Positions 8,299 through 25,883 of a stretch of DNA of 32,000 bases are shown here, piece after piece; position 1 is the stretch's first letter, and each line of letters begins with the position of its first letter. This stretch comes from Sinorhizobium meliloti (lineage in GTDB: Bacteria; Pseudomonadota; Alphaproteobacteria; Rhizobiales; Rhizobiaceae): contig NZ_JAGIOS010000003.1 of the NCBI RefSeq assembly GCF_017876815.1, positions 300,001-332,000 on the forward strand. Reading direction: 5' to 3'. A program made the position numbers and the translations under genes. The notes beneath the pieces are model-generated. The model saw only the letters and a program-made list of their open reading frames with translations, was not told the DNA's origin and searched no databases.

Positions 8299-8970
8299 TT
8301 AGACCGCCTCGAGCTTGCTGAACCGAACCGGGATGAGTTGCCGCGCCAGGAATTGCCCTTCCGAATCCTTGTCGATGACAGTCAGCACCTGTTCTTCCGA
8401 ACCCACAGGAAGAACAAGGCGGCCCATTGGCTTGAGCTGCTCGAGCAAAGCCGGAGGCGGCTCCTCAGCCGCCGCCGTGACCAGGATCTTGTCGAATGGA
8501 GCGTGCTCAGGCCAGCCGCGTGAACCGTCGCCGATACGAATGCCGACATTAGACATGCCGAGGCCGTGCAGGAGAGCCTCGGCATGGCTTGCGAATTCCT
8601 CAATGATCTCGACGCTCCAAATCTTCCCGGCGAGTTGAGCGAGGATTGCGGTTTGATAGCCCAGGCCGGTGCCGATCTCAAGCACGGCCTCATGCGGTTT
8701 GGGAGCAAGGAGATCGGTCATGAGTGCGACCATGAAGGGCTGCGACACGGTTTTATCGAAGCCGATCGGAAGCGGCATGTCCTGGTAGGCAAAGGGCGCA
8801 GCTTGGGCGGGCACGAACAGATGCCGCGGTACCCGCAGCATCGCTGCCATTACCCGTTCATCGAGCGCCGCCTTGCCGAGTTCTTCACTTGCAAGGTCGG
8901 CATAGATTGCGACCACCTCGACCATGTGCCTGCGCAGAACGGCGAGGTGCTCTTCGTTCATTGGCTTCAT
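8299..8970 (-). CDS. pcm: Protein-L-isoaspartate O-methyltransferase.
   Basis: Pcm family signatures are present: VSQPFMVALMTDLL, the SAM motif VLEIGTGLGYQTAILAQL, and GDGSRGWPEHAPFDKILVTAA. Confidence 0.93.
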   Translation of the reverse strand: MKPMNEEHLAVLRRHMVEVVAIYADLASEELGKAALDERVMAAMLRVPRHLFVPAQAAPFAYQDMPLPIGFDKTVSQPFMVALMTDLLAPKPHEAVLEIGTGLGYQTAILAQLAGKIWSVEIIEEFASHAEALLHGLGMSNVGIRIGDGSRGWPEHAPFDKILVTAAAEEPPPALLEQLKPMGRLVLPVGSEEQVLTVIDKDSEGQFLARQLIPVRFSKLEAV

Positions 8971-9199: not shown

Positions 9200-9264
9200 A
9201 GTGCGGCGCTATCTCGACTCCGGCCGTCTTGCGCCGAGAGTTCGTGGGCGAAAGGTCGGCGTCG

Positions 9265-9765
9265 ATGCATCAGGGGTTCTTTCTTCTGTTCGCTACGGTG
9301 TCCGTGGTCACAGCCCTGACGCTGGTCCTGGCGCGCAATCCGGTTCACAGCGCATTGGCGCTGATGGCGTGCTTCCTGCAGATTTCCGCAATCTTCGTTA
9401 TGCTCGGCGCGCCGCTGCTCGCGGTCATCCAGATCTTCGTCTATGTCGGCGCGATCATGGTCCTGTTCCTGTTCGTGATCATGATGGTCGACGTGCGCGA
9501 AGCGGTGCTGCAGCGTTTCATGCCCGGCGGCAACTTGCCGGCGCTCGCCCTTCTCGTCCTGCTCGGTGCTGAGATGGTCGTGCTGGTGCTCTGGAGTGAT
9601 CGCTTCATCGAATCGCCGCCAGTCGCCGAACGCGGAGGCGATGCGATCAGAGATCTCAGCAAGACGCTCTTCTCGGACTATCTCCTGCCGTTCGAAGTCG
9701 CCTCCGTCATCCTGCTGGCGGCTCTCGTCGGCGCCATCGTGCTGGCGCGGAAGGAGCCTGGCTGA
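9265..9765 (+). CDS. nuoJ: NADH-quinone oxidoreductase subunit J.
   Basis: The sequence [74 protein letters not shown] is typical of NuoJ. I chose the ATG at 9265 rather than the track's TTG at 9229. The stop overlaps the nuoK start (TGATG). Confidence 0.9.
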
Positions 9766-10067
9766 TGGTCCCGCTCTGGTGGTCGATCCTGCTCGGAGTG
9801 GCCCTGTTTGTGATAGGAGCGGGGGGCGTCCTTCTAAGGCGCAATATCCTGATCGTGCTGATGTCGCTGGAGCTTCTGCTCAATTCGGTCAACATCAATT
9901 TCATCGCCTTCGGGCAGTACTACGACGACTTCCGCGGACAGATCTTTGCGATCTTCGTCATCGCGATCACCGCGGCGGAGGTTGCCGTGGCCCTCGGCAT
10001 ATTGGTCGCGCTGGTGAGGAACAAGTCCACCCTCAAGGTAGACGACGTCACCATCATGAAAGGATAG
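9765..10067 (+). CDS. nuoK: NADH-quinone oxidoreductase subunit K.
   Basis: It is 100 aa with three TM segments and the NuoK signature [19 protein letters not shown]. Confidence 0.95.
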
Positions 10068-10071
10068 CGGC

Positions 10072-11535
10072 TTGGACCCGGTGATATCGACCCGGCCGCT
10101 GCTCGCCGTCGCCGTCGCCGGACTGGCGGCCCTCGCCATTCTCTTTCTCAACAAGCGCGAAAAACTCCGCGACGCGGTATCGCCGATCGCCGCGGTCGCC
10201 ATGTTTGCGATCGTCGTCTCCATGGCGCCGACGGTGCTGGCCGGCGGCACCGTCGAACTGCGGTTGTTCGAGGTCCTGCCAGGGATCGACGTCGCTTTGC
10301 GGGCCGATGCGCTCGGCATGGTATTCGCCACTGTCTCTTCGCTTCTGTGGATCGTGGCCGCGGTCTACTCCATCGGTTATATGCGGCACTTGCACGAGCA
10401 CGCGCAGACCCGCTTTTTCGCCTGCTTCGCCACCAGCCTCGCGGCCGCAGTGGGCGGCGCCTTCGCCGCAAATCTGTTCACGCTGGTTATCTTCTACGAG
10501 GTGCTGAGCCTCGTCACCTATCCGCTCGTCTACCACCACGAGGACGAAGAAGGATGGCGGGGCAGCCGCAAGTATCTCGTCTATCTGATGGGCGCTTCGA
10601 AAAGCGTGCTTCTCGCTGCTTTGGCGCTGACCTATCACATCGCCGGGTCGCTCGACTTCGTGAGGGGCGGGTTGCTGACCGGCGCCAATGCCTCGGCGAC
10701 GCTGCTCACTGTCGTCTATTTCTGCTATCTGTTCGGCTTCGCCAAGGCGGCGGTGATGCCGATGCATGCCTGGCTGCCCGCCGCAATGGTGGCGCCGACG
10801 CCTGTCAGCGCGCTCTTGCATGCCGTGGCGGTCGTCAAAATGGGCGTCTTCTGCGTGCTGCGGGTGATCTTTCATGTTTTTGGCGTCAGCACGGTCGGGG
10901 AACTGGGCCTTGGGGTCGCCACGGCCTATTTGGTCTCATTCACCATCCTGATGGCATCGGTCTACGCGCTGACGCGCGACGACCTGAAGGCGAGGCTTGC
11001 CTATTCGACCGTCAGCCAGCTCTCCTACATCGTGTTGGGCGCGGTACTCCTATCGCCGCTGGCCATGGTCGGCGGGATCATCCACATCGCCGCGCATGCA
11101 TTCTCCAAGATCACGCTCTTTTTCTGCGCGGGGTCGATCTATTGCGCGTCCGGAAAACGCAACATCAGCGACATGGCGGGCATCGGCCGGAGGCTTCCCT
11201 GGACGATGGGGGCATTCTTCGTCGCGTCGCTGAGCATGATCGGCATCCCGCCGACGGCAGGTTTCGTCAGCAAGTGGTATCTGGCGGAGGGCTCGGTAGA
11301 GGCCGGACAGATGGCTTTCCTGGCCGTGCTGCTCGCAAGTTCGGTCCTCAATGCCGCCTATTTTCTGCCGGTCAGCTACACCGCCTTTTTCGAGGCGGAG
11401 ACCAAGGAGAGCCGGGCGCCGGTCCGCGAAATCCCGCTTGTTGCGATCCCGCTGGTCGCGACCGCGATCCTATCAGTGCTGATGGGCATCTTCCCCTACT
11501 ATTTCCTCACCCTCGCGGACGGAGTGATCCGATGA
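10072..11535 (+). CDS. Extra antiporter-like subunit of the NuoL/MrpA-MrpD family (Proton_antipo_M type), with no lateral helix.
   Basis: It is 487 aa and polytopic. The TM5 Glu context is LVIFYEVLSLVTYPLV. The TM7-8 signature FGFAKAAVMPMHAWLPAAMVAPTPVSALLHAVAVVKMGVF is of NuoL/MrpA type. The protein ends right after the pump core, so it lacks the C-terminal amphipathic helix. The TTG start at 10072 sits 7 nt after AAAGGA, and a GTG at 10081 is an alternative. Confidence 0.85.
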   Translation: MDPVISTRPLLAVAVAGLAALAILFLNKREKLRDAVSPIAAVAMFAIVVSMAPTVLAGGTVELRLFEVLPGIDVALRADALGMVFATVSSLLWIVAAVYSIGYMRHLHEHAQTRFFACFATSLAAAVGGAFAANLFTLVIFYEVLSLVTYPLVYHHEDEEGWRGSRKYLVYLMGASKSVLLAALALTYHIAGSLDFVRGGLLTGANASATLLTVVYFCYLFGFAKAAVMPMHAWLPAAMVAPTPVSALLHAVAVVKMGVFCVLRVIFHVFGVSTVGELGLGVATAYLVSFTILMASVYALTRDDLKARLAYSTVSQLSYIVLGAVLLSPLAMVGGIIHIAAHAFSKITLFFCAGSIYCASGKRNISDMAGIGRRLPWTMGAFFVASLSMIGIPPTAGFVSKWYLAEGSVEAGQMAFLAVLLASSVLNAAYFLPVSYTAFFEAETKESRAPVREIPLVAIPLVATAILSVLMGIFPYYFLTLADGVIR

Positions 11536-11786
11536 TCAAGCCTGTCGTCGATTTCTTTGGTGACGCGCAATATGCGAGGTTGCGCCGGCGGCTGTTCTAT
11601 CTGGTGCTCGTCCTGATCGTCGCCGCCGACTTCCTGGTTCCCCGCGACCACGCCGAATACCTGTGGGAGCGGCTGCCGGGCTGGCCGGCGGCGTACGGCT
11701 TCGGCTCCTGCGTGCTGCTCATCTTCGTTTCCAAGTTTCTCGGTCATCGCGCCGGGCTGATGCGGCGCGAGGACTACTATGATTGA
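11532..11786 (+). CDS. Small (84 aa) predicted two-TM membrane protein of unknown function, embedded in the nuo membrane-arm operon.
   Basis: The sequence is MIKPVVDFFGDAQYARLRRRLFYLVLVLIVAADFLVPRDHAEYLWERLPGWPAAYGFGSCVLLIFVSKFLGHRAGLMRREDYYD. Its ATG overlaps the upstream stop (ATGA at 11532-11535) and its stop overlaps the next gene's start by 8 nt. Third codon positions are strongly G/C-biased. In the track it appears only as the tail of the out-of-frame ORF 10347..11786. Confidence 0.55.
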   Translation: MIKPVVDFFGDAQYARLRRRLFYLVLVLIVAADFLVPRDHAEYLWERLPGWPAAYGFGSCVLLIFVSKFLGHRAGLMRREDYYD

Positions 11787-13539
11787 TTTCGTCCACCCGG
11801 CTCTCATCTTCATTCTAGGCGCTCTGCCGATCCCGTTCTTAACGGGACCGGTGCGTAAAGCCTATCTCGTGCTGATCCCGGTACTGGCGATCGTCGCCGT
11901 CACGGCGATAGAGCCCGGCAGTCATGGCGAGACGCAGTTCCTCGGCCAGGACATTCTGGTTGCGAAGGCCGACAAGCTCAGCATCGTCTTCGCGACCGTC
12001 TTCACCATCATGGCGCTGATCGGCACGGTCTATGCATTGCACCTTTCCGGCGCCGGCCAGCATGTGGCCGCCTTCGTCTATGTCGGCAGCGCGCTCGGGG
12101 TGGTGTTCGCAGGCGACTATCTGACCCTCTACCTGTTTTGGGAGGGCATGGCATTCGCCTCGGCTTATCTGGTCTTCGCTCAAGGAGGCCGACAGGCGAT
12201 CCGCGCCGCTTTTCGGTATCTTATGGTCCACGTCACCGGCGGCGTCGTCCTGCTCGGGGGAATTCTGCTCCATGGGGCAGCCGCAGGCTCGCTGCTCTTC
12301 GGTCCGGTCGAGGGCCCTTTGGGCGCGGGTGCCTACCTCATTCTTGCCGGTTTCCTGCTCAACGCGGCGGTGCCGCCGCTCAATGCCTGGCTGACCGATG
12401 CCTACCCGGAGGCGACCGTCACCGGGGCGGTGTTCATGAGCGCCTTCACGACCAAGACCGCCGTCTACGTGCTGGCGCGGGCGTTTCCGGGTATCGAACT
12501 GCTGGTCTGGCTCGGCACGGTGATGGCGCTCTATGGCGTCATTTATGCGGTGCTGGAAAACGACTGCCGCCGCCTTCTTGCCTATCATATCGTCAGCCAG
12601 GTGGGCTACATGGTCGCGGGCATCGGCATCGGCACCGAGCTGGCGGTGAACGGAGCCACCAGTCACGCCTTCGCGCACATCCTTTACAAGGGGCTCCTGT
12701 TCATGGGCGCCGGGGCGGTGATCTACGTCACAGGCCGGCGCAAGCTCACGGAGCTTGGCGGGCTCTACAAGGCAATGCCGCTGACGGTGGCGCTCTATAT
12801 GATCGGCGCCTTTGCGATCTCGGCATTTCCGTTCTTCTCGGGTTTTGTCAGCAAATCGATGGTGGTGGCCGCTGCAGGGCAGGATCACCGCGCGCTGGTG
12901 ATGCTGGCGCTGACGATGGCGTCATCCGGGACGTTCCTGCACACCGGGCTCAAACTCCCCTATTACATGTTCTTCGGTACCGACCGGGGGCTGCAGGCAC
13001 GGGAGCCGCCCGGCAACATGCTGGCCGCGATGGGCATGGCGGCGGCGCTTTGCATTGCCATCGGCGTATTCCCCGGACCGCTCTACGCGCTTCTGCCCTA
13101 TCCTGTCGATTTCGAGCCCTATACCGGCGTCCACGTGACCGAGAGCCTCGGGATCCTGATGTTCACGGCTCTGGGCTTTGTGATCTTCCTCCGGGCGCTC
13201 GATCCCGAAAACACGATCAGTCTCGACATCGACTGGTTCTATCGCAAGGGCGCCCGCGCCTTCATGTGGTTCGCAGAAAGACCGTTGGCGCGCTATGAGA
13301 AGGCGGTCAGCGACGTGTCGGAGACCACGGTTCTGCCCTTCCTGCACGGCTCGGCGCGCACGGGGATGCGGCTCGATCTCAATGGCGTGGATGGAGTCGT
13401 CAATGGCGTCGCCCGATCGATCCTCGAAGGCGGCGGCGTATTGCGGCGCTTGCAGACCGGCGTCATCAGCCATTACGTGCTGGCGATGATCGCCGGTCTG
13501 ATCGCGGCCATCCTCGTCTTCGCGGTCGTCTGGAGGTAG
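11779..13539 (+). CDS. nuoL: NuoL-like antiporter subunit carrying the C-terminal lateral (HL) helix and a terminal TM anchor.
   Basis: It is 586 aa. The pump core shows LYLFWEGMAFASAYLV and NAWLTDAYPEATVTGAVFMSAFTTKTAVY. The C-terminus reads DIDWFYRKGARAF...LNGVDGVVNGVARSILEGGGVLRRLQTGVISHYVLAMIAGLIAAILVFAVVWR. The DG-VNG...LQTG...Y motif followed by a final TM is characteristic of NuoL/MrpA lateral-helix regions. Confidence 0.85.
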   Translation: MIDFVHPALIFILGALPIPFLTGPVRKAYLVLIPVLAIVAVTAIEPGSHGETQFLGQDILVAKADKLSIVFATVFTIMALIGTVYALHLSGAGQHVAAFVYVGSALGVVFAGDYLTLYLFWEGMAFASAYLVFAQGGRQAIRAAFRYLMVHVTGGVVLLGGILLHGAAAGSLLFGPVEGPLGAGAYLILAGFLLNAAVPPLNAWLTDAYPEATVTGAVFMSAFTTKTAVYVLARAFPGIELLVWLGTVMALYGVIYAVLENDCRRLLAYHIVSQVGYMVAGIGIGTELAVNGATSHAFAHILYKGLLFMGAGAVIYVTGRRKLTELGGLYKAMPLTVALYMIGAFAISAFPFFSGFVSKSMVVAAAGQDHRALVMLALTMASSGTFLHTGLKLPYYMFFGTDRGLQAREPPGNMLAAMGMAAALCIAIGVFPGPLYALLPYPVDFEPYTGVHVTESLGILMFTALGFVIFLRALDPENTISLDIDWFYRKGARAFMWFAERPLARYEKAVSDVSETTVLPFLHGSARTGMRLDLNGVDGVVNGVARSILEGGGVLRRLQTGVISHYVLAMIAGLIAAILVFAVVWR

Positions 13540-13545
13540 GGCGCG

Positions 13546-15021
13546 ATGTCGATCCCGCTGCTGAGCCTCATCGTCTTCGTGCCCGTCGCCGGGGCGGCCG
13601 TTCTGATGTTCATGCGCAGCGACGATGCGGTGCGGTGGACTGCGCTCGGTTTCGGGATTGTCGATCTCGCTCTCTGCGTGGTGATGCTGGCAGGCTTCGA
13701 CACGACGACCCACGAAATGCAGTTCACCGAGAGCCGTCCCTGGGTGCCCGCGCTCGGGATCACCTATGCGCTCGGCGTCGACGGCATCAGCGCGCTCTTC
13801 CTGTTCCTGACGGCGCTGTTGAGCTTGATCTCCGTGCTCGCTTCCTGGGTGGCGATCGACCGCAAGGTGAAGGAGTTCATGGTCAGCCTGCTGGTCATGC
13901 AGGCGCTGATGCTCGGTGTCTTCTGCGCGCTCGACCTGTTCCTGTTCTACGTCTTCTGGGAAGCGATGCTGATTCCGATGTATCTGATCATCGGCGTCTG
14001 GGGCGGCGAAGGCCGGGTCTATGCTGCGTTCAAGTTCTTCCTCTACACGCTGGCCGGCAGCATCCTCTTCCTGATCGGCGTCATCGTGCTCTATTTCCAG
14101 GGGGGCGAGACCTTCGACATACTCGCCCTGACGGGGCAGGATCTGCCCTTCGGCGTCCAGGCCTGGCTGTTCTTCGCCTTCCTGGTGGCCTTCGCTGTCA
14201 AGGTGCCGATGGTGCCGGTGCACACGTGGCTGCCGGACGCCCATGTGCAGGCGCCGACTGCGGGCAGCATCATTCTCGCGGGCGTGCTCCTGAAGATGGG
14301 TGCTTACGGATTCCTGCGCTTCTCGCTGCCGATGCTGCCGGAAGCATCGCTCTATTATTCGACGCTCATGCTCGCGCTTTCGGCTCTTGCGATCGTTTAT
14401 GGCGGCCTGCTGGCTCTGGCCCAGGACGACCTAAAAAAGCTGGTGGCCTATTCCAGCATCAGCCATATGGGATTCGTGACGCTCGGGATTTTCGCGCTGA
14501 ATCTGCGCGGGCTCGAGGGCAGCATCCTGCAGATGTTCAATCACGGGATAACGACGGGCGCATTGTTCCTGTTCGTGGGCCTGATCTACGAGCGCACGCA
14601 TACCCGCAGCATCGCGAATTACGGCGGGCTGATGAAGGCGGCGCCCGTCTATACCGCCTTTCTTGCGCTCTTCACCCTGTCTTCGATGGCGCTGCCGGGG
14701 ACGAACGCTTTCGTGGGCGAACTGCTGGTGCTGTCAGGCGGGTTTGCGGCAAACCTCGCCGCGGGCGCCGCGGCCGTAGTGGGTGCGTTGCTGAGTGCCG
14801 CCTACCTGCTCGGCATGTACGGGAAAGTGGCGCTTGGTCCGCCGAGTGTGAGTGCGAAGTATGAGATACATGACGTGAACGGCCGCGAGATCGCTGCCAT
14901 CCTGCCGCTCGCCATCTTCGTGCTCTGGGTTGGGCTCTATCCGCGCCCGTTCCTCGGGATCATCGATGCGTCGGTTCGAAATCTGCTGGTGCAGGTACAC
15001 GGTGAAGGGAGTGGTCAATGA
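13546..15021 (+). CDS. nuoM: NADH-quinone oxidoreductase subunit M.
   Basis: It carries VFWEAMLIPMYLIIGVWGG and the NuoM-type signature VHTWLPDAHVQAPTAGSIILAGVLLKMGAYG. GGAGG lies 6-10 nt upstream of the start. Confidence 0.93.
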   Translation: MSIPLLSLIVFVPVAGAAVLMFMRSDDAVRWTALGFGIVDLALCVVMLAGFDTTTHEMQFTESRPWVPALGITYALGVDGISALFLFLTALLSLISVLASWVAIDRKVKEFMVSLLVMQALMLGVFCALDLFLFYVFWEAMLIPMYLIIGVWGGEGRVYAAFKFFLYTLAGSILFLIGVIVLYFQGGETFDILALTGQDLPFGVQAWLFFAFLVAFAVKVPMVPVHTWLPDAHVQAPTAGSIILAGVLLKMGAYGFLRFSLPMLPEASLYYSTLMLALSALAIVYGGLLALAQDDLKKLVAYSSISHMGFVTLGIFALNLRGLEGSILQMFNHGITTGALFLFVGLIYERTHTRSIANYGGLMKAAPVYTAFLALFTLSSMALPGTNAFVGELLVLSGGFAANLAAGAAAVVGALLSAAYLLGMYGKVALGPPSVSAKYEIHDVNGREIAAILPLAIFVLWVGLYPRPFLGIIDASVRNLLVQVHGEGSGQ

Positions 15022-16457
15022 CTGCTGCCGCGCTTCTCCAATGGGCCCTGGCGAGCGTCCCCGAGATCATCGTGGTCACCGGTGCCTGCGTCCTGCTGAT
15101 TGTCGGAGAGCTTGTGCGCAAGGGACGCGACGATCTGCTCCTGTGGGCTTCAGTAGCGATCGTGCTCCTCGCCGCGGTAGCCACGCTCATGCTGGCAGGC
15201 GAGATGCAGCCAGCCTATGCGGGCATGTTCATTTCCGACCGCTTCGCCGTCTTCTTCAAGTTGGTGTTTTATCTGGCGACCATCCTGACCTTCTTCCTGT
15301 CGCGGAAATACGCCGAGATAGAGGGGATCGGCAGGAGCGAATATTATGTCCTGCTGCTCTTTGCCCTTGTGGGAATGATGATCATGGCCTCGGCGATCGA
15401 CCTCCTGTCGATCTATGTGGGTCTCGAGTTGATGGTGCTCTGCACCTATGTGCTGACAGGCTTCCTGCGCAAAGAGCGGCGGTCGAACGAGGCGGCGTTG
15501 AAATATGTGATCCTCGGCGCGGTCTCGACGGCGATTTTCCTTTATGGAGTCTCGCTCATCTACGGGCTCACCGGTACGACCCAGCTGAACCGGATGGCTG
15601 AGGCGGTGAGCGGCGGTCCGCTCGATCCCGCCCTGCTGCTGGCGGTCGTTTTCATCGTTGCGGGGCTCGTCTTCAAGATCGGCGCCGTGCCGTTCCATAT
15701 GTGGGTGCCGGATGTCTATGAAGGCGCGCCGACGACGATCACCGCCTTCATGTCGGTCGCGCCCAAGGCGGCCGGATTCGCGGTGATTCTCCGGGTGTTC
15801 CTCAATCCGCTTGTCGAAGCCTCGAACGCCTGGATCATCGTCGCGGCCATTGCGGTGGCAACGATGGCGCTCGGCAGTTTCGTCGCGCTTGTGCAGGATA
15901 ATTTCAAGCGCCTGCTCGCCTATTCCAGCATCGCCCATGCGGGTTTCGCTATTTTCGGCGTGGTGGCCGGCGGCCAGGACGGGATCGCCAGCGTAATGCT
16001 CTATCTGCTCATCTACACTTTCATGAATCTCGGCATTTTCGGCGCGGTGATCATGATGCGGAACGGCGACTTTTCCGGCGAAGTCATCGAAGACTACGCG
16101 GGTTTCGCCAAGTTCCATCCCGGACTCGCGCTTCTGATGCTCCTTTATCTCTTCTCGCTCGCTGGCATTCCGCCGACGGCCGGGTTCTTCGCCAAGTTCT
16201 ATGTGCTGGTCGCGCTGGTCGAGCGCGGTTTCGTCGCGCTGGCGGTGATCGCAGTCCTGCTCAGCGTCGTCTCCGCCTATTTCTATATCCGCATCGTCAT
16301 GGTGATCTACATGCGTGAGCCGGAAAGGGCGTTCGAACCTGCGTTGACGCCGCTCGTCAGCGCCACGCTCGCCTTCACCGCCGCCGGCACCATCGGCATC
16401 GGCCTGTTTCCGGCGTGGTTCCTGAGGCTTGCTCAACAGTCGGCTTTCGGCGGGTAA
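15018..16457 (+). CDS. nuoN: NADH-quinone oxidoreductase subunit N.
   Basis: It has the NuoN-type signature FKIGAVPFHMWVPDVYEGAPTTITAFMSVAPKAAGF. Its start overlaps the nuoM stop (ATGA). Confidence 0.92.
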   Translation: MTAAALLQWALASVPEIIVVTGACVLLIVGELVRKGRDDLLLWASVAIVLLAAVATLMLAGEMQPAYAGMFISDRFAVFFKLVFYLATILTFFLSRKYAEIEGIGRSEYYVLLLFALVGMMIMASAIDLLSIYVGLELMVLCTYVLTGFLRKERRSNEAALKYVILGAVSTAIFLYGVSLIYGLTGTTQLNRMAEAVSGGPLDPALLLAVVFIVAGLVFKIGAVPFHMWVPDVYEGAPTTITAFMSVAPKAAGFAVILRVFLNPLVEASNAWIIVAAIAVATMALGSFVALVQDNFKRLLAYSSIAHAGFAIFGVVAGGQDGIASVMLYLLIYTFMNLGIFGAVIMMRNGDFSGEVIEDYAGFAKFHPGLALLMLLYLFSLAGIPPTAGFFAKFYVLVALVERGFVALAVIAVLLSVVSAYFYIRIVMVIYMREPERAFEPALTPLVSATLAFTAAGTIGIGLFPAWFLRLAQQSAFGG

Positions 16458-16545: not shown

Positions 16546-16672
16546 CCCGACGGCATAGACTCGCCTTGGAGGAAAAGGATTGCCAAGGCCGCCTATCGAG
16601 GCGCCGGCATCCCCGGTTCCGAAGGGGCCGATCGCGGCTGAGAAAAGCCGCTGGTTGGCCAAGGCCAACGCT

Positions 16673-17038
16673 ATGACGGCAATGGAGTTCCTGCCGGTTC
16701 TGTTTATGGTTACCGGGATAGTCCTGGTGGCGGCGGCGACGCTTTTCGTCTCATCGCTGTTGCGTCCGTCCAATCCCTATCCCGAGAAGAACGCCCCTTA
16801 CGAATGCGGTATGGAAGCGGCGGGCGAGGCCGCAGGCGGGCGCTTCCGGGTTCCGTTCTTTATCCTCGCTATCCTCCTCGTGGTCTTCGATGTCGAAGCG
16901 ATGTTCCTCTTTCCCTGGGCGGTCGTCCTGAAGGAGATCGGCTTCGTCGGCTATATCGAGATGTTCGTCTTCATGTTGCTGCTACTTGTGGGCTTCGCCT
17001 ATGCCTGGCTGAAGGGGGCGCTGGAATGGCAGGAGTAA
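16673..17038 (+). CDS. nuoA: NADH-quinone oxidoreductase subunit A.
   Basis: The sequence [30 protein letters not shown]...YECGMEAAG...[23 protein letters not shown] matches the NuoA pattern. The track's TTG start at 16580 adds a Pro/Ala-rich 31 aa that is unlikely to be real. Confidence 0.9.
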
Positions 17039-17529
17039 ACGACGCGATTCGCGACAGCGTACTGTTCACCACGGCCGACAGCATCATCAGTTGGAGCCGG
17101 AGGTCGGCCCTGTGGCCCGAAACCTTCGGCATTGCCTGCTGCGCCATCGAAATGATCTCGGCCGGTTGCGCGCGCTACGACCTCGACCGGTTCGGCGTGG
17201 TGTTCCGGCCTTCTCCGCGGCAGTCCGATGTGATGATCATTGCCGGCACAGTCACTCGGAAATTCGCGCCCGTCGTGCGGCGGCTTTACGACCAGATGCC
17301 GGAACCGCGTTGGGTGATTGCGATGGGGACCTGCGCAATTTCGGGCGGAGTCTACAACACCTATGCCGTGGTGCAGGGATCGGAAACCTTCGTCCCCGTC
17401 GACGTGCATGTGCCCGGCTGTCCGCCGCGGCCGGAGGCGCTGATGCACGGTTTTCTCCTGCTTCAGGAAAAGATCAAGAAGTCCCGTGCACTTACCGGGA
17501 CGCCCCTAGGACGGGTTATAGCATCATGA
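17026..17529 (+). CDS. nuoB: NADH-quinone oxidoreductase subunit B (N2 cluster subunit).
   Basis: All N2 ligand motifs are present: [18 protein letters not shown] and [11 protein letters not shown]. The ATG at 17026 overlaps the nuoA end by 13 nt. The track ORF 16804..17529 begins upstream in the same frame. Confidence 0.95.
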
Positions 17530-18074
17530 CCGGGGAGCGGCCCGTCCATCTCACGGCGATCATTGGGAGCTTCGGGGGAGCGGTCGAGAATCTCGGCGCT
17601 GCGCATGGTATTTACGCTTTTGCCGTCCCACCGGAGCAGATCGTCGAGTTCTGTCGGTTCCTGAAAGAACACCCGGCGCTTGAGTTCGATTTCCTCTCGG
17701 ACATATGCGGCGTCGATCACTATCCCGAGACGCCGCGCTTCGAGACGGTTTACCATCTCTATTCGCTGAAGAACAAATGGCGTGTTCGCATCAAGTGCCG
17801 CCTCGGCGAGCCGCCGCATGTTCCCACTGTCACGGGAGTCTGGCGAACCGCCAACTGGCATGAGCGCGAGGCCTGGGATATGTACGGCATCCGCTTCGAG
17901 GGGCATCCCGATCTGCGCCGCATCTACATGTGGGAAGGCTTCGAGGGCTTTCCGCAACGGAAGGATTTCCCCTTGAGGGGCTACAAGGACAAGCTGAACC
18001 CCTTCGGTGCCGAGGGGCCGCCGCCGACGCAGCCGGACCTCGCCACTAACGATATACCCCAAGGAGGCCGCTAG
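17526..18074 (+). CDS. nuoC: NADH-quinone oxidoreductase subunit C (not fused to D).
   Basis: It shows NuoC signatures: [48 protein letters not shown] and [12 protein letters not shown]. Its ATG overlaps the nuoB stop (ATGA). Confidence 0.92.
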
Positions 18075-18090
18075 ACGCCGGAGAGTTGAG

Positions 18091-19305
18091 ATGACCGAAG
18101 TCACCGAGCTCATGAGGCCGGAAGGCGAAGCGCTCAATACCAAGGAGGTGCTTCTCAATCTCGGTCCGCAGCACCCGAGCACCCACGGGGTTCTGCGGCT
18201 CGTGCTCCAACTCGACGGCGAATATGTCGAGCGCGTCGACCCGCATATCGGCTATCTCCACCGTGGCACAGAAAAGCTCGCGGAGAGCTTCACCTATACG
18301 CAGATCTTCCCGCTGACCGACCGACTCGACTATCTCTGTCCGCCTTCGAACAATCTGGCCTTCGCGCTCGCCGTGGAGAAGCTGCTCGGCATAGAAGCCC
18401 CGATCCGGGCGCAATATATCCGCGTCATGATGGCCGAACTCGCACGGATTTCCGGCCATCTCCTGATCACCGGCGCGCTGCCTATGGACCTGGGCGCCAT
18501 GACGGCGCTGCTTTACGCCATGCGCGAGCGCGAAATGATCATGGACCTCCTGGAAATGATCACCGGTGCGCGCATGCACACGTCCTACTGCCGCGTCGGC
18601 GGGGTGCGCGAGGACCTGCCCGATGGGTTCCTTCCGAAGATCCGGGAGTTCTGCGAGATATTCCCGAACCGGATCCGTGACTATGAGCGCCTGATAGAGA
18701 ACAATCGGGTGTTTCTCAGCCGTACGCAAGGGGTCGGCGTGATCTCCGCAACGGACGCGATCGACCTCGGCCTGAGCGGGCCGAACCTGCGTGCCTCCGG
18801 CGTCGACTGGGACATCCGGCGCGACGAACCCTATGAAATCTACGACCGGCTCGACTTCGACGTCATCACGCGCGAGGAGGGCGATTGCTATTCGCGCTGG
18901 CTTTGCCGGGTCGACGAGATGCGCGAGAGCATCCGCCTTATCGAACAATGCATGGAGCAGATGCCGGAGGGGCCGTTTCAGGTCGATATTCCGACGATCG
19001 CCTTCCCCGTCGATAAAGAGCGCGTGCATTGCTCGATGGAGGCCCTGATCCAGCATTTCGATCTCTCCGCCTATGGCTTCGACGTACCCGCGGGTGAGGT
19101 CTATTCGGTAATCGAGGCGCCCAAGGGGGAACTCGGCTTCTACATCATCAGCGACGGATCGCCGAAGCCGTTCCGCATGAAGGTGAGGGCGCCTTCCTTC
19201 GTCAATCTCCAGGCGCTCTTCGGCGTCACCAATGCACGCTACCTCGCCGACATGATCGCGGTGCTCGGCAGCCTCGACCCGGTGATGGCGGAGGTGGACA
19301 AGTAG
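18091..19305 (+). CDS. nuoD: NADH-quinone oxidoreductase subunit D.
   Basis: It carries LNLGPQHPSTHGVLRLVLQLDGE, HIGYLHRGTEKL and a C-terminus GSLDPVMAEVDK. GGAGAG lies 6 nt upstream of the ATG at 18091. Confidence 0.96.
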   Translation: MTEVTELMRPEGEALNTKEVLLNLGPQHPSTHGVLRLVLQLDGEYVERVDPHIGYLHRGTEKLAESFTYTQIFPLTDRLDYLCPPSNNLAFALAVEKLLGIEAPIRAQYIRVMMAELARISGHLLITGALPMDLGAMTALLYAMREREMIMDLLEMITGARMHTSYCRVGGVREDLPDGFLPKIREFCEIFPNRIRDYERLIENNRVFLSRTQGVGVISATDAIDLGLSGPNLRASGVDWDIRRDEPYEIYDRLDFDVITREEGDCYSRWLCRVDEMRESIRLIEQCMEQMPEGPFQVDIPTIAFPVDKERVHCSMEALIQHFDLSAYGFDVPAGEVYSVIEAPKGELGFYIISDGSPKPFRMKVRAPSFVNLQALFGVTNARYLADMIAVLGSLDPVMAEVDK

Positions 19306-19323
19306 CAGGGAGGATCGGACGCG

Positions 19324-19830
19324 ATGACGATGCGCGAAGAGATCGAGGCGGCGGCGGCACGATACCCCGACCGGCGGTCGGCGATCATGCCCGCGCTCAT
19401 GATCGCGCAGAAGGAGCATGGTCATCTGCCCGGCCCGGTTCTCGAAGAGGTCGCCCAAATCCTCGGCGTCGAGCGCGTTTGGGTCTATGAACTGGCGACC
19501 TTCTACACGCTCTTCCATACCGAACCGATCGGCAGGTTCCACCTGCAACTCTGCGACAACGTCTCCTGCATGCTGTGCGGATCCGAGGCGCTGCTGACGC
19601 ATCTGGAAACGACACTGGGGATCAGGAAGGGCGAGACCACGCCGGACGGTGCGTTCACGCTTTCGACCGTCGAATGTCTCGGGGCCTGCGAAATGGCTCC
19701 GGTTATGCAGGTCGGCGACGATTACCACGGCAACCTTGATGCCGCGCGGCTCGATGCGCTGCTGGAGAGCTTCCGCGCGGCGGAGCGGGTGACGAGCGTC
19801 GAGCGCGCTGCTGCGGCGCCAGGAGAGTAA
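19324..19830 (+). CDS. nuoE: NADH-quinone oxidoreductase subunit E (2Fe-2S, N1a).
   Basis: The thioredoxin-like 2Fe-2S motifs are LQLCDNVSCMLCG and VECLGACEMAPVMQV. Confidence 0.95.
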   Translation: MTMREEIEAAAARYPDRRSAIMPALMIAQKEHGHLPGPVLEEVAQILGVERVWVYELATFYTLFHTEPIGRFHLQLCDNVSCMLCGSEALLTHLETTLGIRKGETTPDGAFTLSTVECLGACEMAPVMQVGDDYHGNLDAARLDALLESFRAAERVTSVERAAAAPGE

Positions 19831-19833
19831 GCC

Positions 19834-21099
19834 ATGTTCGAGCCTGTCCTGCTCAGGAATGTCGATGTGCCGGACGGTCATCTGCTGTCGACGTACGAGG
19901 CCGGCGGCGGCTACCGGGCGCTCAGGAAGGCGCTCGGCGAATATACGCCCGACGAGATCGTCGAGCTCGTCAAGGAGTCCAACCTGCGCGGCCGCGGGGG
20001 TGCCGGGTTCCCCACGGGCATGAAGTGGAGCTTCGTGCCGAAAGCGGCCGGCAAGCCGAAATACCTCTGCTGCAATGCCGATGAAGGGGAACCCGGCACC
20101 TTCAAGGACCGCATCATCATGGAGCGTGACCCGCATCAGCTCATCGAGGGGCTGGCGGTCAGCGCCTATGCAATCGGAGCCGAGACGGCTTACGTCTACA
20201 TTCGCGGAGAATATGTGACGGCTATACGCCGCATGGAACAGGCGATCGCCGAGGCACATGAAAACGGCTATCTGGGCATCGGCATTCTTGGCTCGGACTT
20301 CAATTTCATGGTCCACATCCATCGCGGTGCCGGCGCCTATATCTGCGGCGAGGAGACCGCAATGCTCGAGTCACTCGAGGGCAAGCGGGCGCAGCCGCGA
20401 CTGAAGCCGCCGTTTCCGGCCGTGGCCGGGCTCTATGCCAGCCCCACTGTCATCAACAATGTCGAGACGCTTGCCTGCGTGCCGCATATCGTGACGCGCG
20501 GATCGGCATGGTTCCGCGGCATAGGGCCGGACAGGAGCCCCGGCCCGAAACTCTACTGCCTCAGCGGTCAGGTTCGCAAACCCGGCCTCTATGAGCTGCC
20601 GATGGGCATATCGCTGCGGGAGCTCGTCGAGGAGCACGCCGGCGGACCCCTGCCGGGGCGAAAGGTCAAGGCGGTGATTCCCGGTGGGGTATCGGCGCCG
20701 GTTATCCCGGAGGGCGAGCTCGAGGTGAGCATGGATTTCGACTCGCTCACTGCCGCCGGTTCGATGCTCGGCTCGGCAGGCGTGGTCGTGATCGACGACT
20801 CGACCTGCATGGTCAAGCTCGCCACGCGGATCATCGAGTTCTTCCACCATGAGTCCTGCGGCAAGTGCACGCCATGCCGGGAAGGATTGGACTGGACCGT
20901 GAAAGTCCTGCGGCGCATTGAGGCAGGCGAGGGTGAAACCGGCGATCTGGAGCAGTTGGAGATGCTCTGCAAGGGCATTTTCGGCAACACGTTTTGCGCC
21001 CTGGGCGACGGTGCGGCCATGGGATTGCGGGCCGCGCTCAAGCATTTCCGCGCGGAGTTCGTCGCCCACATCGAAGAGCGGAGGTGCCCTTTCCACTGA
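19834..21099 (+). CDS. nuoF: NADH-quinone oxidoreductase subunit F (FMN/NADH site, N3).
   Basis: It has GRGGAGFPTGMKWSF, CNADEGEPGTFKDR and ESCGKCTPCREG. Confidence 0.97.
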   Translation: MFEPVLLRNVDVPDGHLLSTYEAGGGYRALRKALGEYTPDEIVELVKESNLRGRGGAGFPTGMKWSFVPKAAGKPKYLCCNADEGEPGTFKDRIIMERDPHQLIEGLAVSAYAIGAETAYVYIRGEYVTAIRRMEQAIAEAHENGYLGIGILGSDFNFMVHIHRGAGAYICGEETAMLESLEGKRAQPRLKPPFPAVAGLYASPTVINNVETLACVPHIVTRGSAWFRGIGPDRSPGPKLYCLSGQVRKPGLYELPMGISLRELVEEHAGGPLPGRKVKAVIPGGVSAPVIPEGELEVSMDFDSLTAAGSMLGSAGVVVIDDSTCMVKLATRIIEFFHHESCGKCTPCREGLDWTVKVLRRIEAGEGETGDLEQLEMLCKGIFGNTFCALGDGAAMGLRAALKHFRAEFVAHIEERRCPFH

Positions 21100-21128
21100 A
21101 AGGGAACCGGGCCGGTCTGGGAGGAAGT

Positions 21129-23690
21129 ATGGTCAAGGTTACGATCGACGAACAATCGCTGGAGGTCGAGGCTGGCTCCACGGTGCTCGCCGCCGCCGAG
21201 CGGCTGGGCATTGAGATCCCCACCTTCTGCTATTGGAAGCGGCTGCCGCCACTCGCCTCGTGCCGCATGTGTCTGGTGGAGATCGAGGGACTGCGGCGGC
21301 TGCAGCCGGCTTGCGCCACTGTGGCAGCGGACGGCATGGTAGTTCGGACAAATACGCCGCTAATTGAGGAAACGCGCTCGTCCATGCTCGACATGCTGCT
21401 CGCCAATCACCCGCTCGATTGCCCGATCTGCGACAAGGGCGGCGAGTGCGAGCTTCAGGACATGGTCATGGCGTATGGACCCGGCGAAAGCCGGTTCCGC
21501 GACCCAAAACGTGTGTTTCATTCGAAGGACATCCGTCTGAGCCCGGTCATCATCATGAATGTCAACCGGTGCATCCAGTGCCAGCGCTGCGTGCGCATGT
21601 GCGAGGAGGTCGTGGGCGCGGTGGCGCTGGGCACGGTCGAAAAGGGGATGGACACGGCCGTCACCGGTTTCGAGGGGAGTCTCGCAAGCTGCGACCAGTG
21701 CGGCAATTGCGTCGAGGTCTGCCCCGTCGGCGCGCTGATGAGTTTCCCCTATCGCTACAAGGCACGGCCCTGGGATCTCGCCGAGACCGACACGATCTGC
21801 CCGCATTGCGGCACCGGCTGCCAGCTCACCGTCGGAGCGCGCAAAGGTGAGTTCATGCGGGTCCGCTCGGACTGGGAACATGGCGTCAACCGCGAAACGC
21901 TTTGCGTGCGCGGCCGCTTCGGCCTCGACTTCATCGAGAGCCGGAATCGGATCAAGCGGCCGATGATCCGCCGCGATGGGGCGCTCACGCCGGTGTCATG
22001 GGAGGAGGCGGGCGATTTTCTCCGCCAGCGCCTCGGGGTAGCGGAGGGCAAGGCCGCCGGCGGGCTCATCTCGCCGCGTCTGCCGAACGAGGTGCTCTAC
22101 CAGTTCCAGAAGCTGATGCGGACGGTGTTGCGCACCAATAATGTCGACTGCTCGTCGCGCTGGTCCGCGCCCCTCGACATTCTGGTCCCCATAGTGGCAA
22201 GCTTTTGCAGCCGCGACCCTCTCGAACAGGTGATCGGCAAGGACTGCGTCCTTATCATCGGCGGCAATGTGACCGAGGAGAACCCGGTCACCGAATACCT
22301 CCTGCGCGATGCCGCGCGGCGGCGGCATACCCGCTTGCTCATGCTTTCGGCGCGGCCATCGCGCCTCGATGCCGATGCCCGGGCGGTCCTTCGCGCCCAT
22401 CCAGGCGGCGAGGGTCAGAGCCTTGCCGCGGTCGTGGCTGCTCTCGTGGCCGTAACCGATGAGGGCTTGCCAGACGATATCCTTGCGAAGACCAGCGGGA
22501 CGATCGCCAGTTCCGGCGCCAATGACGCGTTGGACCGTCTGGTCTCAACGCTCAAGGAAGGTCGGAGCGTCACTCTCCTGGTAAGCGTCGATCTGCTGAG
22601 ATCACCGCTGGCGCGGAAGACGCTCGAGCAGCTCGGCAATCTCCTGCAACTCCTGCGCCTGCTCGGCAAGGAACCCTCGCTGCAGTTCCTCTTCGATCGT
22701 GCCAATCAGATGGGCGCCTGGGACATGGGTGTTCTGCCGGGAGTTTTGCCGGGACTGGGCCCCATCGCCGATGAGGCAACACGCACGAAGTTCGAACGGA
22801 GCTGGGGCGCAGAGATCCCTCGCGAACCGGGCGCCGATGTCGACGCGATGCTGGAACTCTGCGAAAAGGGGGGGATGGGCGTGCTCTATGTGGTCGGAAG
22901 CGACCCGCTGATATCCTATCCCGACCGGGAGTTCGTGGAGCGCGCACTCGGTGCCGCCAATCTTCTGATCGTGCAGGACGCGTTTCTCACCGATACGGCC
23001 GGACTGGCCGACGTCGTGCTGCCTGCGGCCGGTTACGGCGAAGAATCCGGCACGTTCACCAACAATGAAGGTCGTACCCAGGCGCTCCGCAAATTCCGCG
23101 AACCGGCTTTTGACGCCAGGAGCAATCTGGCGATCTTCGGCTTTATCGCGGCGCTTCGGGAGCAGCCGCTGCAGCCATCGACCGAGACCGTCATCTTCGA
23201 GGAGATGACCCGGTTGGTTCCCGCCTATGAAGGCTTGACGTGGGAAGGGCTTGGTGCCGACGGTGCCTTCACCACGTCAGCCCCGAAGCCTTGGACAAGC
23301 GGGTTCTTCGCTCCTCTGTCTGCACCTGGGGTGACGGACGTGCTCCAGCTGATCACCGGCAACTGCCTGTTCCACAATGGCTATGTTTCCGAGCGCTCGG
23401 AAACCCTGAATTCGGTCGCAGATGACCCTTTTATCGAGATGAGCGCTCAGGATGCCGCTGGTCTCAGCCTTTCGGACGGCGATCAGGTGCTCGTGCGATC
23501 TGCCCGGGGCGAGCTGACGGCGAAGCTCAAGGTCAACAGGCGCTTTCCGCACGGGCTCGTGTTCGTTCCCGAAAACTACCGCGCCCTGCGGCTCAACAGT
23601 CTGATGCGGCGGGGCGAGTATCCATGTCCGGTGGAGATCCGAGAGTGCGCGAAGCGCGCTGCGTCTGCTCTGGATGAAGAACGGGTCTGA
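21129..23690 (+). CDS. nuoG: NADH-quinone oxidoreductase subunit G (853 aa, long form with a molybdopterin-oxidoreductase-like domain).
   Basis: N1b ligands: CYWKRLPPLASCRMCLVEI...CATV. N5: HPLDCPICDKGGECELQD. N4: CIQCQRCVRMC...CDQCGNCVEVCP. N7-like: CPHCGTGCQL...CVRGRF. The ATG at 21129 follows GGGAGGAAGT. The track ORF begins upstream in frame at 20994, inside nuoF. Confidence 0.95.
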   Translation: MVKVTIDEQSLEVEAGSTVLAAAERLGIEIPTFCYWKRLPPLASCRMCLVEIEGLRRLQPACATVAADGMVVRTNTPLIEETRSSMLDMLLANHPLDCPICDKGGECELQDMVMAYGPGESRFRDPKRVFHSKDIRLSPVIIMNVNRCIQCQRCVRMCEEVVGAVALGTVEKGMDTAVTGFEGSLASCDQCGNCVEVCPVGALMSFPYRYKARPWDLAETDTICPHCGTGCQLTVGARKGEFMRVRSDWEHGVNRETLCVRGRFGLDFIESRNRIKRPMIRRDGALTPVSWEEAGDFLRQRLGVAEGKAAGGLISPRLPNEVLYQFQKLMRTVLRTNNVDCSSRWSAPLDILVPIVASFCSRDPLEQVIGKDCVLIIGGNVTEENPVTEYLLRDAARRRHTRLLMLSARPSRLDADARAVLRAHPGGEGQSLAAVVAALVAVTDEGLPDDILAKTSGTIASSGANDALDRLVSTLKEGRSVTLLVSVDLLRSPLARKTLEQLGNLLQLLRLLGKEPSLQFLFDRANQMGAWDMGVLPGVLPGLGPIADEATRTKFERSWGAEIPREPGADVDAMLELCEKGGMGVLYVVGSDPLISYPDREFVERALGAANLLIVQDAFLTDTAGLADVVLPAAGYGEESGTFTNNEGRTQALRKFREPAFDARSNLAIFGFIAALREQPLQPSTETVIFEEMTRLVPAYEGLTWEGLGADGAFTTSAPKPWTSGFFAPLSAPGVTDVLQLITGNCLFHNGYVSERSETLNSVADDPFIEMSAQDAAGLSLSDGDQVLVRSARGELTAKLKVNRRFPHGLVFVPENYRALRLNSLMRRGEYPCPVEIRECAKRAASALDEERV

Positions 23691-24217: not shown

Positions 24218-24260
24218 CTGAACCTCCAGTCCCTGCTTCGGCGCAACGCCCGGCGCGCCT

Positions 24261-24827
24261 TCACTTTCGTCGAATATTCCGCCACCAATTGTACCCGCGC
24301 GGCTCGCTGGCCTCGACCAGAACATCCCGTTCGGTGTTCAGGCGCGCAGCCACGACACCGCCGCCGGTCATCGCCTTGCCCGGCTTGGCGAGCAGATCGT
24401 CACGGCCGATCACCAAGTCGCGCGAGGAGAAACTCGAAAATTCATATTGTTGGCCAAGAGCGATCGCGTCCGCCGGGCAGGCGTCCTCGCAGAGCCCACA
24501 GAAGAGACAGCGGGCCGTGTCGATTTCGAATTTGGCAGGGCGCCGATTGCCCTTCTCGTCCTCGTAGGGGACCACTTCGATGCAGTCGCAGGGACAGATC
24601 CGCGCGCAAAGTTCGCAAGCGACGCATTTGATCTCGCCCTCGTCGTCACGCTTGAGGAAATGATGCCCGCGATAGCGCGAATAGGGCAGCCACTTCTCCT
24701 TGTCCGGATATTGCATGGTGACGGGTCTGGAAAACATGTAGCCGAAGGTCAAAGCCAAACCATTCGCCAGATCGGCGAAGAAGGCCCAGCCGATCCATCT
24801 TCCAGCTTTGTCCAGTGCGCGCGACAT
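24261..24827 (-). CDS. nuoI: NADH-quinone oxidoreductase subunit I (2x 4Fe-4S ferredoxin).
   Basis: It carries CVACELCARICPCDCIEV and CLFCGLCEDACPADAI, plus YRGHHFLKRDDEGEIKC. The ATG at 24827 (MSRALDKAGRW...) has GAGG 5 nt upstream and gives a canonical N-terminal length. An alternative ATG at 24893 lies 3 nt after the nuoH stop. Confidence 0.93.
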   Translation of the reverse strand: MSRALDKAGRWIGWAFFADLANGLALTFGYMFSRPVTMQYPDKEKWLPYSRYRGHHFLKRDDEGEIKCVACELCARICPCDCIEVVPYEDEKGNRRPAKFEIDTARCLFCGLCEDACPADAIALGQQYEFSSFSSRDLVIGRDDLLAKPGKAMTGGGVVAARLNTERDVLVEASEPRGYNWWRNIRRK

Positions 24828-24896
24828 GGCCGCCTCGCTGCGGCTCCTGAGAGTCGTCTTGCATGTCCGTGCCCAGAGCTTCCGGGACGGCATGCA

Positions 24897-25883
24897 TCAA
24901 GAAAATACAACACCGCTGATGATTATGTTCGCCAAAGACAGGGGAAGCAAGACCTTCCATCCGATCGCCATCAGTTGGTCGTAGCGGTAACGGGGGAAGG
25001 TGAAGCGGAACCACATGAACAAATAGACGAAGAAGGCAACCTTCAGCAAAAACCAGAGGAGCGGCGGCAGCGGGATGAGCACGCCGTTCCACCCGCCGAA
25101 GAACAGGATCACGGTGAGGACCGACACCAGCACCATCACGACATATTCGCTGACCATGAACAAGGCGAAGCGAATGCCGCTATATTCGGTGTGGAACCCG
25201 GCTCCCAGATCGCCTTCGGCTTCCGCAAGGTCGAAAGGAATTCGCTGCGCTTCTGCAAGGCCCGCGACGAAGAACACGAAACATCCGATCGGCTGATAAA
25301 CGACATTCCAGACGTCGGTTTGCGCCCGCACGATATCCAGCAGGCTCATGGATTGCGCCAGCATGACGACACCGATGACCGCGAACCCCATCGGGATTTC
25401 GTAGCTGATCATTTGCGCGCAGGTCCGCAGAGAACCAAGGACCGCATATTTGCTGTTTGCCGCCCAGCCGCCGAAGATGACGCCATAGACCTCCAGCCCG
25501 ATCACCGCGAAGACGAAAAGCAGCGCTACGTTCAGGTTGGAAATGTAGAGCGTGATCTCGTTGCCGAGGACCGAAACGCTTTCGCCGAACGGGATTGCTG
25601 CAAACACCACGAAGGGCGGGGCAAGCGCCAGGATCGGTGCCAGTTTGAACAGGAAGCGGTCGGCTTCGGCCGGTATATGATCCTCCTTGGTCAGAAGCTT
25701 GATCCCGTCCGCCACCGGCTGCAGCAGTCCGTGCCAGCCCACGCGCATCGGTCCCATCCTCTGCTGCATGTGCCCGGCGATTTTGCGTTCCAACCACGTC
25801 AACGGCAGGGGCAGCAACAGGAGGATCGCGATCACCAAGGCGACCTTGAAGACGATCACGCCGAGGGCGACGATAAGTTCCAT
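24897..25883 (-). CDS. nuoH: NADH-quinone oxidoreductase subunit H.
   Basis: It shows NuoH signatures: LTWLERKIAGHMQQRMGPMRVGWHGLLQPVADGIKLLTKED, and FDLAEAEGDLGAGFHTEYSG in a conserved loop. Confidence 0.96.
   Translation of the reverse strand: MELIVALGVIVFKVALVIAILLLLPLPLTWLERKIAGHMQQRMGPMRVGWHGLLQPVADGIKLLTKEDHIPAEADRFLFKLAPILALAPPFVVFAAIPFGESVSVLGNEITLYISNLNVALLFVFAVIGLEVYGVIFGGWAANSKYAVLGSLRTCAQMISYEIPMGFAVIGVVMLAQSMSLLDIVRAQTDVWNVVYQPIGCFVFFVAGLAEAQRIPFDLAEAEGDLGAGFHTEYSGIRFALFMVSEYVVMVLVSVLTVILFFGGWNGVLIPLPPLLWFLLKVAFFVYLFMWFRFTFPRYRYDQLMAIGWKVLLPLSLANIIISGVVFS

Follow-up and report, generated by a model that had tools for sequence, protein, structure and literature searches.

In complex I, the part of NuoL that extends from the FDxLY motif to the last transmembrane helix (TM16) runs over NuoM and NuoN. 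Variants of the enzyme with extra pump subunits bear on the number of protons moved per NADH, and also on the question whether the lateral helix (HL) is a structural strap with a length set by the number of pumps. One such variant, the rhizobial 'green complex I', reportedly goes back to Degli Esposti and Martinez-Romero in 2016 (FEMS Microbiol Ecol 92:fiw084), and the 2M complex I of Nitrospira and others is said to have been described by Chadwick et al. in 2018 (ISME J 12:2668). The green complex I is described in two further papers (PMC9040806 and PMC7415380), the latter of which reports its up-regulation in symbiosis and a function as NADH:quinone oxidoreductase. As a generalisation, every antiporter-like subunit of a complex is spanned and integrated by the HL (PMC8165549). 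Yu et al. (2022, PMC9040806) found a 26-residue insert in the HL of MrpD2 from 'Ca. Manganitrophaceae' (Complex_I_3), but none in the rhizobial MrpD. Here, a stretch of 32,000 nucleotides from Sinorhizobium meliloti (contig NZ_JAGIOS010000003.1, positions 300,001 to 332,000; hereafter the window) is compared with these systems, and attention is given to D2, a MrpD-like antiporter subunit of 586 amino acids ('MrpD2', 11779..13539, + strand) with a NuoL-like C-terminal tail of the form TM15-HL-TM16. With a probability of roughly 0.8, the locus encodes a variant of complex I that has two MrpD-like subunits, D1 and D2, and a small protein with two transmembrane helices (TMs) instead of NuoL, the lateral helix is a mosaic, D2 takes the NuoL position and D1 is distal.

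The window is part of S. meliloti pSymA and carries the known green complex I cluster. Its DNA is 100% identical to the megaplasmids of S. meliloti RU11/001 and SM11, and the other S. meliloti records listed match with at least 99.5% identity. An annotated S. meliloti plasmid record with the order J-K-D1-hyp-D2-M-N-A-G is 99.6% identical over the cluster, which is carried by 99 plasmid records of Sinorhizobium, Rhizobium and Ensifer. Two MrpD-like subunits stand in the place of NuoL in the order nuoJ-K-D1-small-D2-nuoM-N, and neither Pfam, NCBIfam nor the plasmid annotation gives a NuoL-family gene in the nuo cluster of the window. D1 (487 amino acids, 10072..11535, +) has a NuoL/MrpA-like core and is without a lateral-helix tail. 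It is followed by an 84-residue two-TM protein (11532..11786, +), which overlaps both D1 and D2, and D2 is followed by nuoM (13546..15021, +; TIGR01972, 640.5 bits) and nuoN (15018..16457, +; TIGR01770, 530.2 bits). The cluster contains one NuoM and one NuoN by these two models, and a second nuoM was not found in it. The antiporter-like subunits therefore number four by Pfam and NCBIfam (D1, D2, NuoM and NuoN), as the initial annotation of this DNA had proposed. The likeness to the green complex I extends to the organism group, the type of replicon (a S. meliloti megaplasmid), the rearranged gene order, the two MrpD-like subunits instead of NuoL and the single nuoM and nuoN. On this rhizobial replicon the operon is rearranged to J K ... 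M N A B C D E F G, and I and H are separate from it; no differences between the window cluster and the green complex I were found. The window holds an instance of the green complex I, a system that is already described and not new. The 13-residue proximal insertion and the mosaic tail reported below are a modest refinement of it; neither is discussed in PMC9040806 or PMC7415380, and the original 2016 description lies outside this comparison.

D2 matched the NCBIfam family NF009310 (PRK12668, 'Na(+)/H(+) antiporter subunit D') with 793.3 bits, over a cut-off of 564, and the match covered the family model from one end to the other, with residues 1-581 aligned to positions 3-583 of 584. The scores against three other families stayed under their cut-offs: 135.7 bits for TIGR01974 (NDH_I_L; 407.5), 157.7 bits for NF005141 (556) and 144.1 bits for the MrpD family NF009306 (542). 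Because of the low score against TIGR01974, D2 is, as judged by its profile matches, not a NuoL; the initial annotation had called it NuoL-like. The gene sits among nuo genes and not in a mrp operon. Compared with the canonical NuoL, Nqo12, ND5 and NdhF, D2 has the same TM15-HL-TM16 architecture, but its core is MrpD/HyfB-like and far under the NuoL cut-off; Pfam gives PF00361 only, and PF00662 (Proton_antipo_N) was not found. Further differences from canonical NuoL are a proximal DxDWFYR motif, 13 extra residues in the tail and the replacement of the TM7 lysine by N195 (nucleotides 12361-12363). This lysine, which pairs with the TM5 glutamate, is present in E. coli NuoL (K229), NuoM and NuoN, in NuoM and NuoN of the window, and in D1. 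Asparagine is found at position 195 in 70 of 94 family members and lysine in 18, and the channel residues E122, K226, H296, H300, K304 and K359 are retained in D2. On these residues, D2 may not be a standard pump. A frameshift or pseudogene was ruled out, as the open reading frame (ORF) is intact and the family model is matched end to end; the 100% identity to the RU11/001 and SM11 records is also opposed to a pseudogene. A Foldseek search of the D2 model against the PDB matched full-length NuoL and MrpA chains, which indicates a NuoL/MrpA-type fold. The root-mean-square deviation of the tail was about 17 Å, and since a monomer model leaves the helix unconstrained, no geometry is taken from it.

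The length of the tail was the starting point of the comparison. Positions 13201-13476 (+) of the window encode 92 residues, D2 475-566 of the TM15-HL-TM16 tail, and these had been translated correctly. The 92 residues were also given as the distance from TM15 to the last TM; the coordinates do cover 92, whereas the TM limits used at the time (L471 and V567) give 95. A count of 77 residues from the DWxY motif to the QTG motif is likewise right (D485 to G561), and the E. coli NuoL has 48 from D542 to G589. From these counts a surplus of about 25 residues had been deduced. This deduction rests on equating the DIDWFY motif of D2 with FDxLY of NuoL, which is opposed by a profile search and by alignments in three MAFFT modes. 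When the D2 tail alone was run with phmmer against the PDB, only the last ~50 residues were aligned, and a profile of seven sequences was therefore used. The seven D2-type tails, at 25-61% identity, align without gaps up to the C-terminal end, and their profile matches the NuoL/NdhF chains 6tjv_F, 7wff_F, 6hum_F, 8e9g_L, 8qby_L and 4he8_L from solved structures. The matches run from positions 59-70 to 137-138, through TM16, and the five alignments that were printed are gap-free over 69-78 positions. In 6hum_F, 'YFDELYEAV' stands opposite 'lvselyrti' of the profile, which is D2 510-518. The MAFFT alignments with six canonical NuoLs (E. coli, Acinetobacter, Neisseria, Paenibacillus, Tsukamurella and Shinella, the last of the Rhizobiaceae) gave the same register. 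In addition, relatives of D2 retain E-[LIMV]-Y at the FDxLY-equivalent, with the canonical NuoL spacing to FDRxxIDG.

Taken together, the alignments show that FDxLY of canonical NuoL corresponds to D2 residues 510-514 (VSDVS) and not to DIDWFY (483-488). The other motifs of the distal helix are VDGVVNG (537-543) and QTG (559-561, of which Q and T lie within the helix). Measured in this register, D2 has an FD-to-QTG interval of 51 residues, as have six other four-pump sequences of the D2 type, and the six canonical NuoLs have 48, 48, 51, 51, 53 and 53. The homologous interval thus falls within the 48-54 residues that the initial annotation had given for canonical NuoL, which speaks against its surplus. 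The two W/Y-rich motifs by which the comparison was misled are the two halves of a mosaic (vide infra).

A true difference in length is nevertheless present. When the count starts at the first charged residue past TM15 and ends with the Q of QTG, 87-88 residues are found in the D2 type (n = 7) and 67-76 in canonical NuoL (n = 6). A single block of alignment columns, the 13 residues MWFAERPLARYEK, is occupied in each of the eight D2-type sequences and empty in each of the six canonical NuoLs. As aligned, the whole length difference is this one insertion at about residues 496-508 in the proximal HL (13264..13302, +), where the placement of the gap is approximate. The surplus amounts to about 20 Å, roughly half a pump width, and is confined to the portion of the helix above D2 itself. 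The lateral helix is therefore longer than canonical, as had been claimed, but by 13 residues rather than by the width of one pump. The surplus had moreover been sought at 504-533 instead of ~496-508, and the segment proposed for it, ARYEKAVSD...MRLD, is mostly ordinary NuoL-like helix core. The rhizobial MrpD2 helix is without a one-pump extension, and a lateral-helix insert of ~26 residues was not found in D2 of the window, given its FD-to-QTG interval.

The tail was further examined with AlphaFold2. A model built with 27 close homologues (83-95% identity) gave a predicted local distance difference test score (pLDDT) of 46 and was discarded; the model from a diverse alignment of 94 sequences had a pLDDT of 90.3. 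Its tail consists of helices at 450-469, 484-533 (continuous), 537-550, 553-558 and 561-585. TM15 (13126..13200, residues ~450-474, +) is supported by the helix 450-469, with a pLDDT of 92-97, and by a hydropathy run at 456-471. Since automatic hydropathy calling gave inconsistent boundaries for TM15, a uniform rule and alignment columns were used, and helix lengths are given as counts of helical residues. The lateral helix starts with the family-specific LDIDWFYRK motif (13222..13248, residues 482-490, +). Its proximal part (13228..13305, residues 484-509, +) is common to D2-like proteins of Mrp operons. The distal NuoL-like part (13306..13458, residues 510-560, +) is defined by the profile and MAFFT alignments. 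TM16, the terminal anchor helix (13459..13533, residues 561-585, +), is an AlphaFold2 helix that aligns with TM16 of NuoL and NdhF. The lateral helix is amphipathic, with a mean hydrophobic moment of 0.405 compared to 0.248 ± 0.052 in shuffles, in agreement with what the initial annotation had expected, and the extra residues are helical, within the predicted continuous helix 484-533. As far as residue ~510 the lateral helix has a pLDDT of 80-83, and past that point values of 43-59. This would be expected if residues 484-510 pack on D2 itself, and the model is consistent with such packing and with a distal rest that needs neighbouring subunits.

The two parts of the helix have different relatives. 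In 94 of about 127 full-length family representatives, the alignments with D2 end at residues 490-519. A search with residues 446-509, which comprise TM15 and the proximal helix with the DIDWFY motif, gave hits in 114 of 150 representatives of the family, and no hit among the six canonical NuoLs. The tail from 509 to 586 matched NuoL-type tails only, one canonical NuoL included, and the distal helix with its FDxLY-IDG-QTG-TM16 arrangement is collinear with and detectably homologous to that of NuoL and NdhF. D483, D485 and R489 of the DxDWFYR motif are each kept in 89-90 out of 94 diverse members of the family, relatives from Mrp operons included. These matches show, at the level of sequence, that the tail is a Mrp-lineage proximal helix (its first ~26 helical residues) joined to a NuoL-like distal helix from about residue 510.

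The relatives with divergent tails that are not of the NuoL type sit in mrpEFG-mbhD-mbhE-mnhB-mrpC-mrpD operons. Two Mrp-type operons that end in D1-like and D2-like genes were seen at L016 3716-8710 and L017 6732-11758, and in the latter a small ORF lies between the two genes. Their D2-like proteins resemble D2 of the window in the core, TM15, the DxDWFYR motif and the proximal helix, and L017 also has the adjoining D1-like subunit and small two-TM ORF. However, past residue ~510 the Mrp-operon tails are not NuoL-like and have neither the FDRxxIDG nor the QTG motif, and both operons place these genes next to mrpE/F/G/B/C/D and not next to nuo genes. Since D1-like and D2-like subunits also close Mrp-type operons, a Mrp origin is pointed to for the module that replaced NuoL in the green complex I.

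The length of the helix was also compared with the number of pumps. In five loci that show the order D1-small-D2-M-N, in full or as far as visible, the count is 87-88 residues. A five-pump locus with D1-small-D2-M-M-N encodes a D2 of 636 amino acids with 26 additional residues between IDG and QTG. The 26-residue insert lies between IDG and QTG in the proteins P0124 and P0137, and P0124, a D2-type protein, has an FD-to-QTG interval of 77. The gene of P0124 (L010 894-3593) was observed directly 3' of nuoJ-K and is followed by unrelated genes; D1, the small ORF, nuoM and nuoN were not found near it in L010. Because the M-N loci have 87-88 residues and the M-M-N locus has 26 more, helix length within the NuoL-tailed D2 subfamily is shown to follow the number of M/N subunits and not D1. 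The 2M and Manganitrophaceae complexes likewise have more than three antiporter-like subunits, and there the length of the lateral helix reports the added pumps. MrpD1 and MrpD2 of Manganitrophaceae are the nearest relatives of the rhizobial ones, but these complexes have a second nuoM and the 26-residue HL insert, whereas the window has one nuoM and the canonical interval of 51.

Two longer D2-like proteins were also observed. One of 735 amino acids, outside this subfamily (L019 9596-15127), has 244 residues from TM15 to ETG, the equivalent of QTG, and within them about four tandem 'PATEFDxxIDxGY' repeats. Its cluster, nuoA-B-CD-H-I-J-K, has three pumps only and no D1. The use of HL-region length as a pump count for all D2-like proteins was ruled out by this locus. 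The other, of 694 amino acids with 196 residues between TM15 and QTG, is encoded in a metagenomic locus (L018 1160-12085) with nuoJ-K, three antiporter-like genes, a fused double antiporter-like gene of 1014 amino acids and an ORF of 121 amino acids, a total of six pump modules in a single complex I-like cluster.

D1 matched the NCBIfam family NF006236 end to end, with 854.7 bits over a cut-off of 663, and Pfam gives it both PF00361 and PF00662. The latter is the N-terminal domain that Pfam names for NADH dehydrogenase chain 5. The TM8 motif of D1 is PTPVSALLHA, with H250; a histidine in TM8 has been listed as specific to NuoL and MrpA (PMC4938563). The channel residues of D1 are complete (E143, K225, K256, H338, H342, K346 and K401). 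The 84-residue protein between D1 and D2 had no Pfam or NCBIfam match. An ORF of 64-90 amino acids was found at the same position in relatives with 38-51% identity in D2 and in a Mrp-type operon, and four aligned members share a C-terminal RxEDYYD-like motif. This two-TM protein is a candidate for fastening D1 to D2.

From these data we infer the order of the subunits and the contacts of the 13 residues. D2 would take the position of NuoL and adjoin NuoM, because its distal helix is collinear with that of three-pump NuoL and because the gene order D1-D2-M-N parallels L-M-N. The NuoL-length distal helix would then strap D2, NuoM and NuoN, with TM16 at its usual site. D1, the core of which is more NuoL/MrpA-like, would be distal, beyond the strap, because it has PF00662 and the NuoL/MrpA-type TM8 histidine. 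The extension of half a pump would shift TM15 towards the D1 side.

This arrangement has to be weighed against the one implied by the initial annotation, in which D2 is NuoL-like and itself distal, and its helix, about one pump width longer, runs over D1, NuoM and NuoN and clamps four pumps. That there are four antiporter-like subunits in the cluster fits such a clamp, as does a helix region above the canonical range (87-88 against 67-76 residues), and the subunit that bears the HL is terminal in all solved relatives, with its HL over all pumps (PMC8165549). However, the surplus of 13 residues corresponds to about half a pump, while 26 are seen elsewhere for an added pump (PMC9040806; P0124 and P0137). 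Its place is in the segment packed on D2 itself by the model, and it is D1, not D2, that has an N-terminal domain and a TM8 histidine of the NuoL/MrpA type. Between the FDxLY-equivalent and TM16, D2 is collinear with three-pump NuoL, and the length of the helix tracks M/N rather than D1; a reading of the surplus as a clamp on a fourth pump is not supported. A distal, clamping D2 is unlikely on this evidence. It is somewhat easier to imagine, though still doubtful, that the 13 residues have no role in a four-pump complex at all, and are either an inherited trait of Mrp-type D2 or ordinary variation in the length of the linker between TM15 and HL, and came into complex I together with the module. 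The DxDWFYR proximal helix is indeed common to D2-like proteins of Mrp operons, canonical NuoLs themselves span nine residues (67-76), and in other D2-like proteins the HL region varies widely in length, independently of pump number. On the other hand, the length is constant at 87-88 over seven sequences down to 25% tail identity, which argues for constraint, and it exceeds the maximum of the canonical sample by 11 residues. D1 and the small ORF are also present in the Mrp-operon relatives, and the surplus and D1 thus always go together.

With D2 next to NuoM and D1 beyond the strap, several points have to be set on the other side of the balance. The order D1-D2-M-N is deduced from collinearity, gene order and residue signatures only, and a D1 beyond the helix would break the rule that the HL spans all subunits (PMC8165549). 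The mosaic could come from uneven divergence instead of recombination. The canonical NuoL sample is small (n = 6), and the TM boundaries are taken from hydropathy and an AlphaFold monomer in which the distal helix has a pLDDT of 43-59. HL-region length is also not a universal pump counter, given the 735-residue protein with its 244 residues in a three-pump cluster.

A further step is tentative. Among complex I-type enzymes, the green complex I might be the first with a non-terminal helix-bearing subunit: the chimeric helix would strap D2, NuoM and NuoN only, the 13-residue extension would put TM15 at the D1/D2 boundary, and TM15 and the 84-residue protein would fasten D1 by a mechanism unseen in solved structures, with D2, which is without the TM7 lysine, perhaps more a connector than a full pump. 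The structural question raised is how a fourth pump, D1, is held if the strap falls short of it. This question matters for models of the energetics of nitrogen-fixing bacteroids only if the stoichiometry of the enzyme is measured.

The remaining genes of the cluster follow the known arrangement. Directly 5' of D1 are nuoJ and nuoK (9229..10067, +; PF00499, PF00420 and the plasmid-record annotation). Downstream, nuoA-B-C-D-E-F-G lies 3' of nuoN (16580..23690, +), as given by the plasmid-record annotation, with Pfam matches for NuoA and NuoG. The nuoI and nuoH genes (24261..25883, - strand; Pfam Fer4_7, PF00146 and annotation) are inverted and next to a gene for a CBS-domain protein (23777-24325, -), which is placed between nuoG and this pair. 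On the 5' side of the nuo cluster, sensory and methyltransferase genes are found at 4942-8157, 2553-3983 and 8299-8970 (all -). Their products are a 1071-residue multi-PAS GGDEF-EAL protein, a CheR methyltransferase, near which a response regulator and a chemoreceptor are encoded, and a protein-L-isoaspartate O-methyltransferase. These genes are possibly a sensory or regulatory neighbourhood for the cluster.

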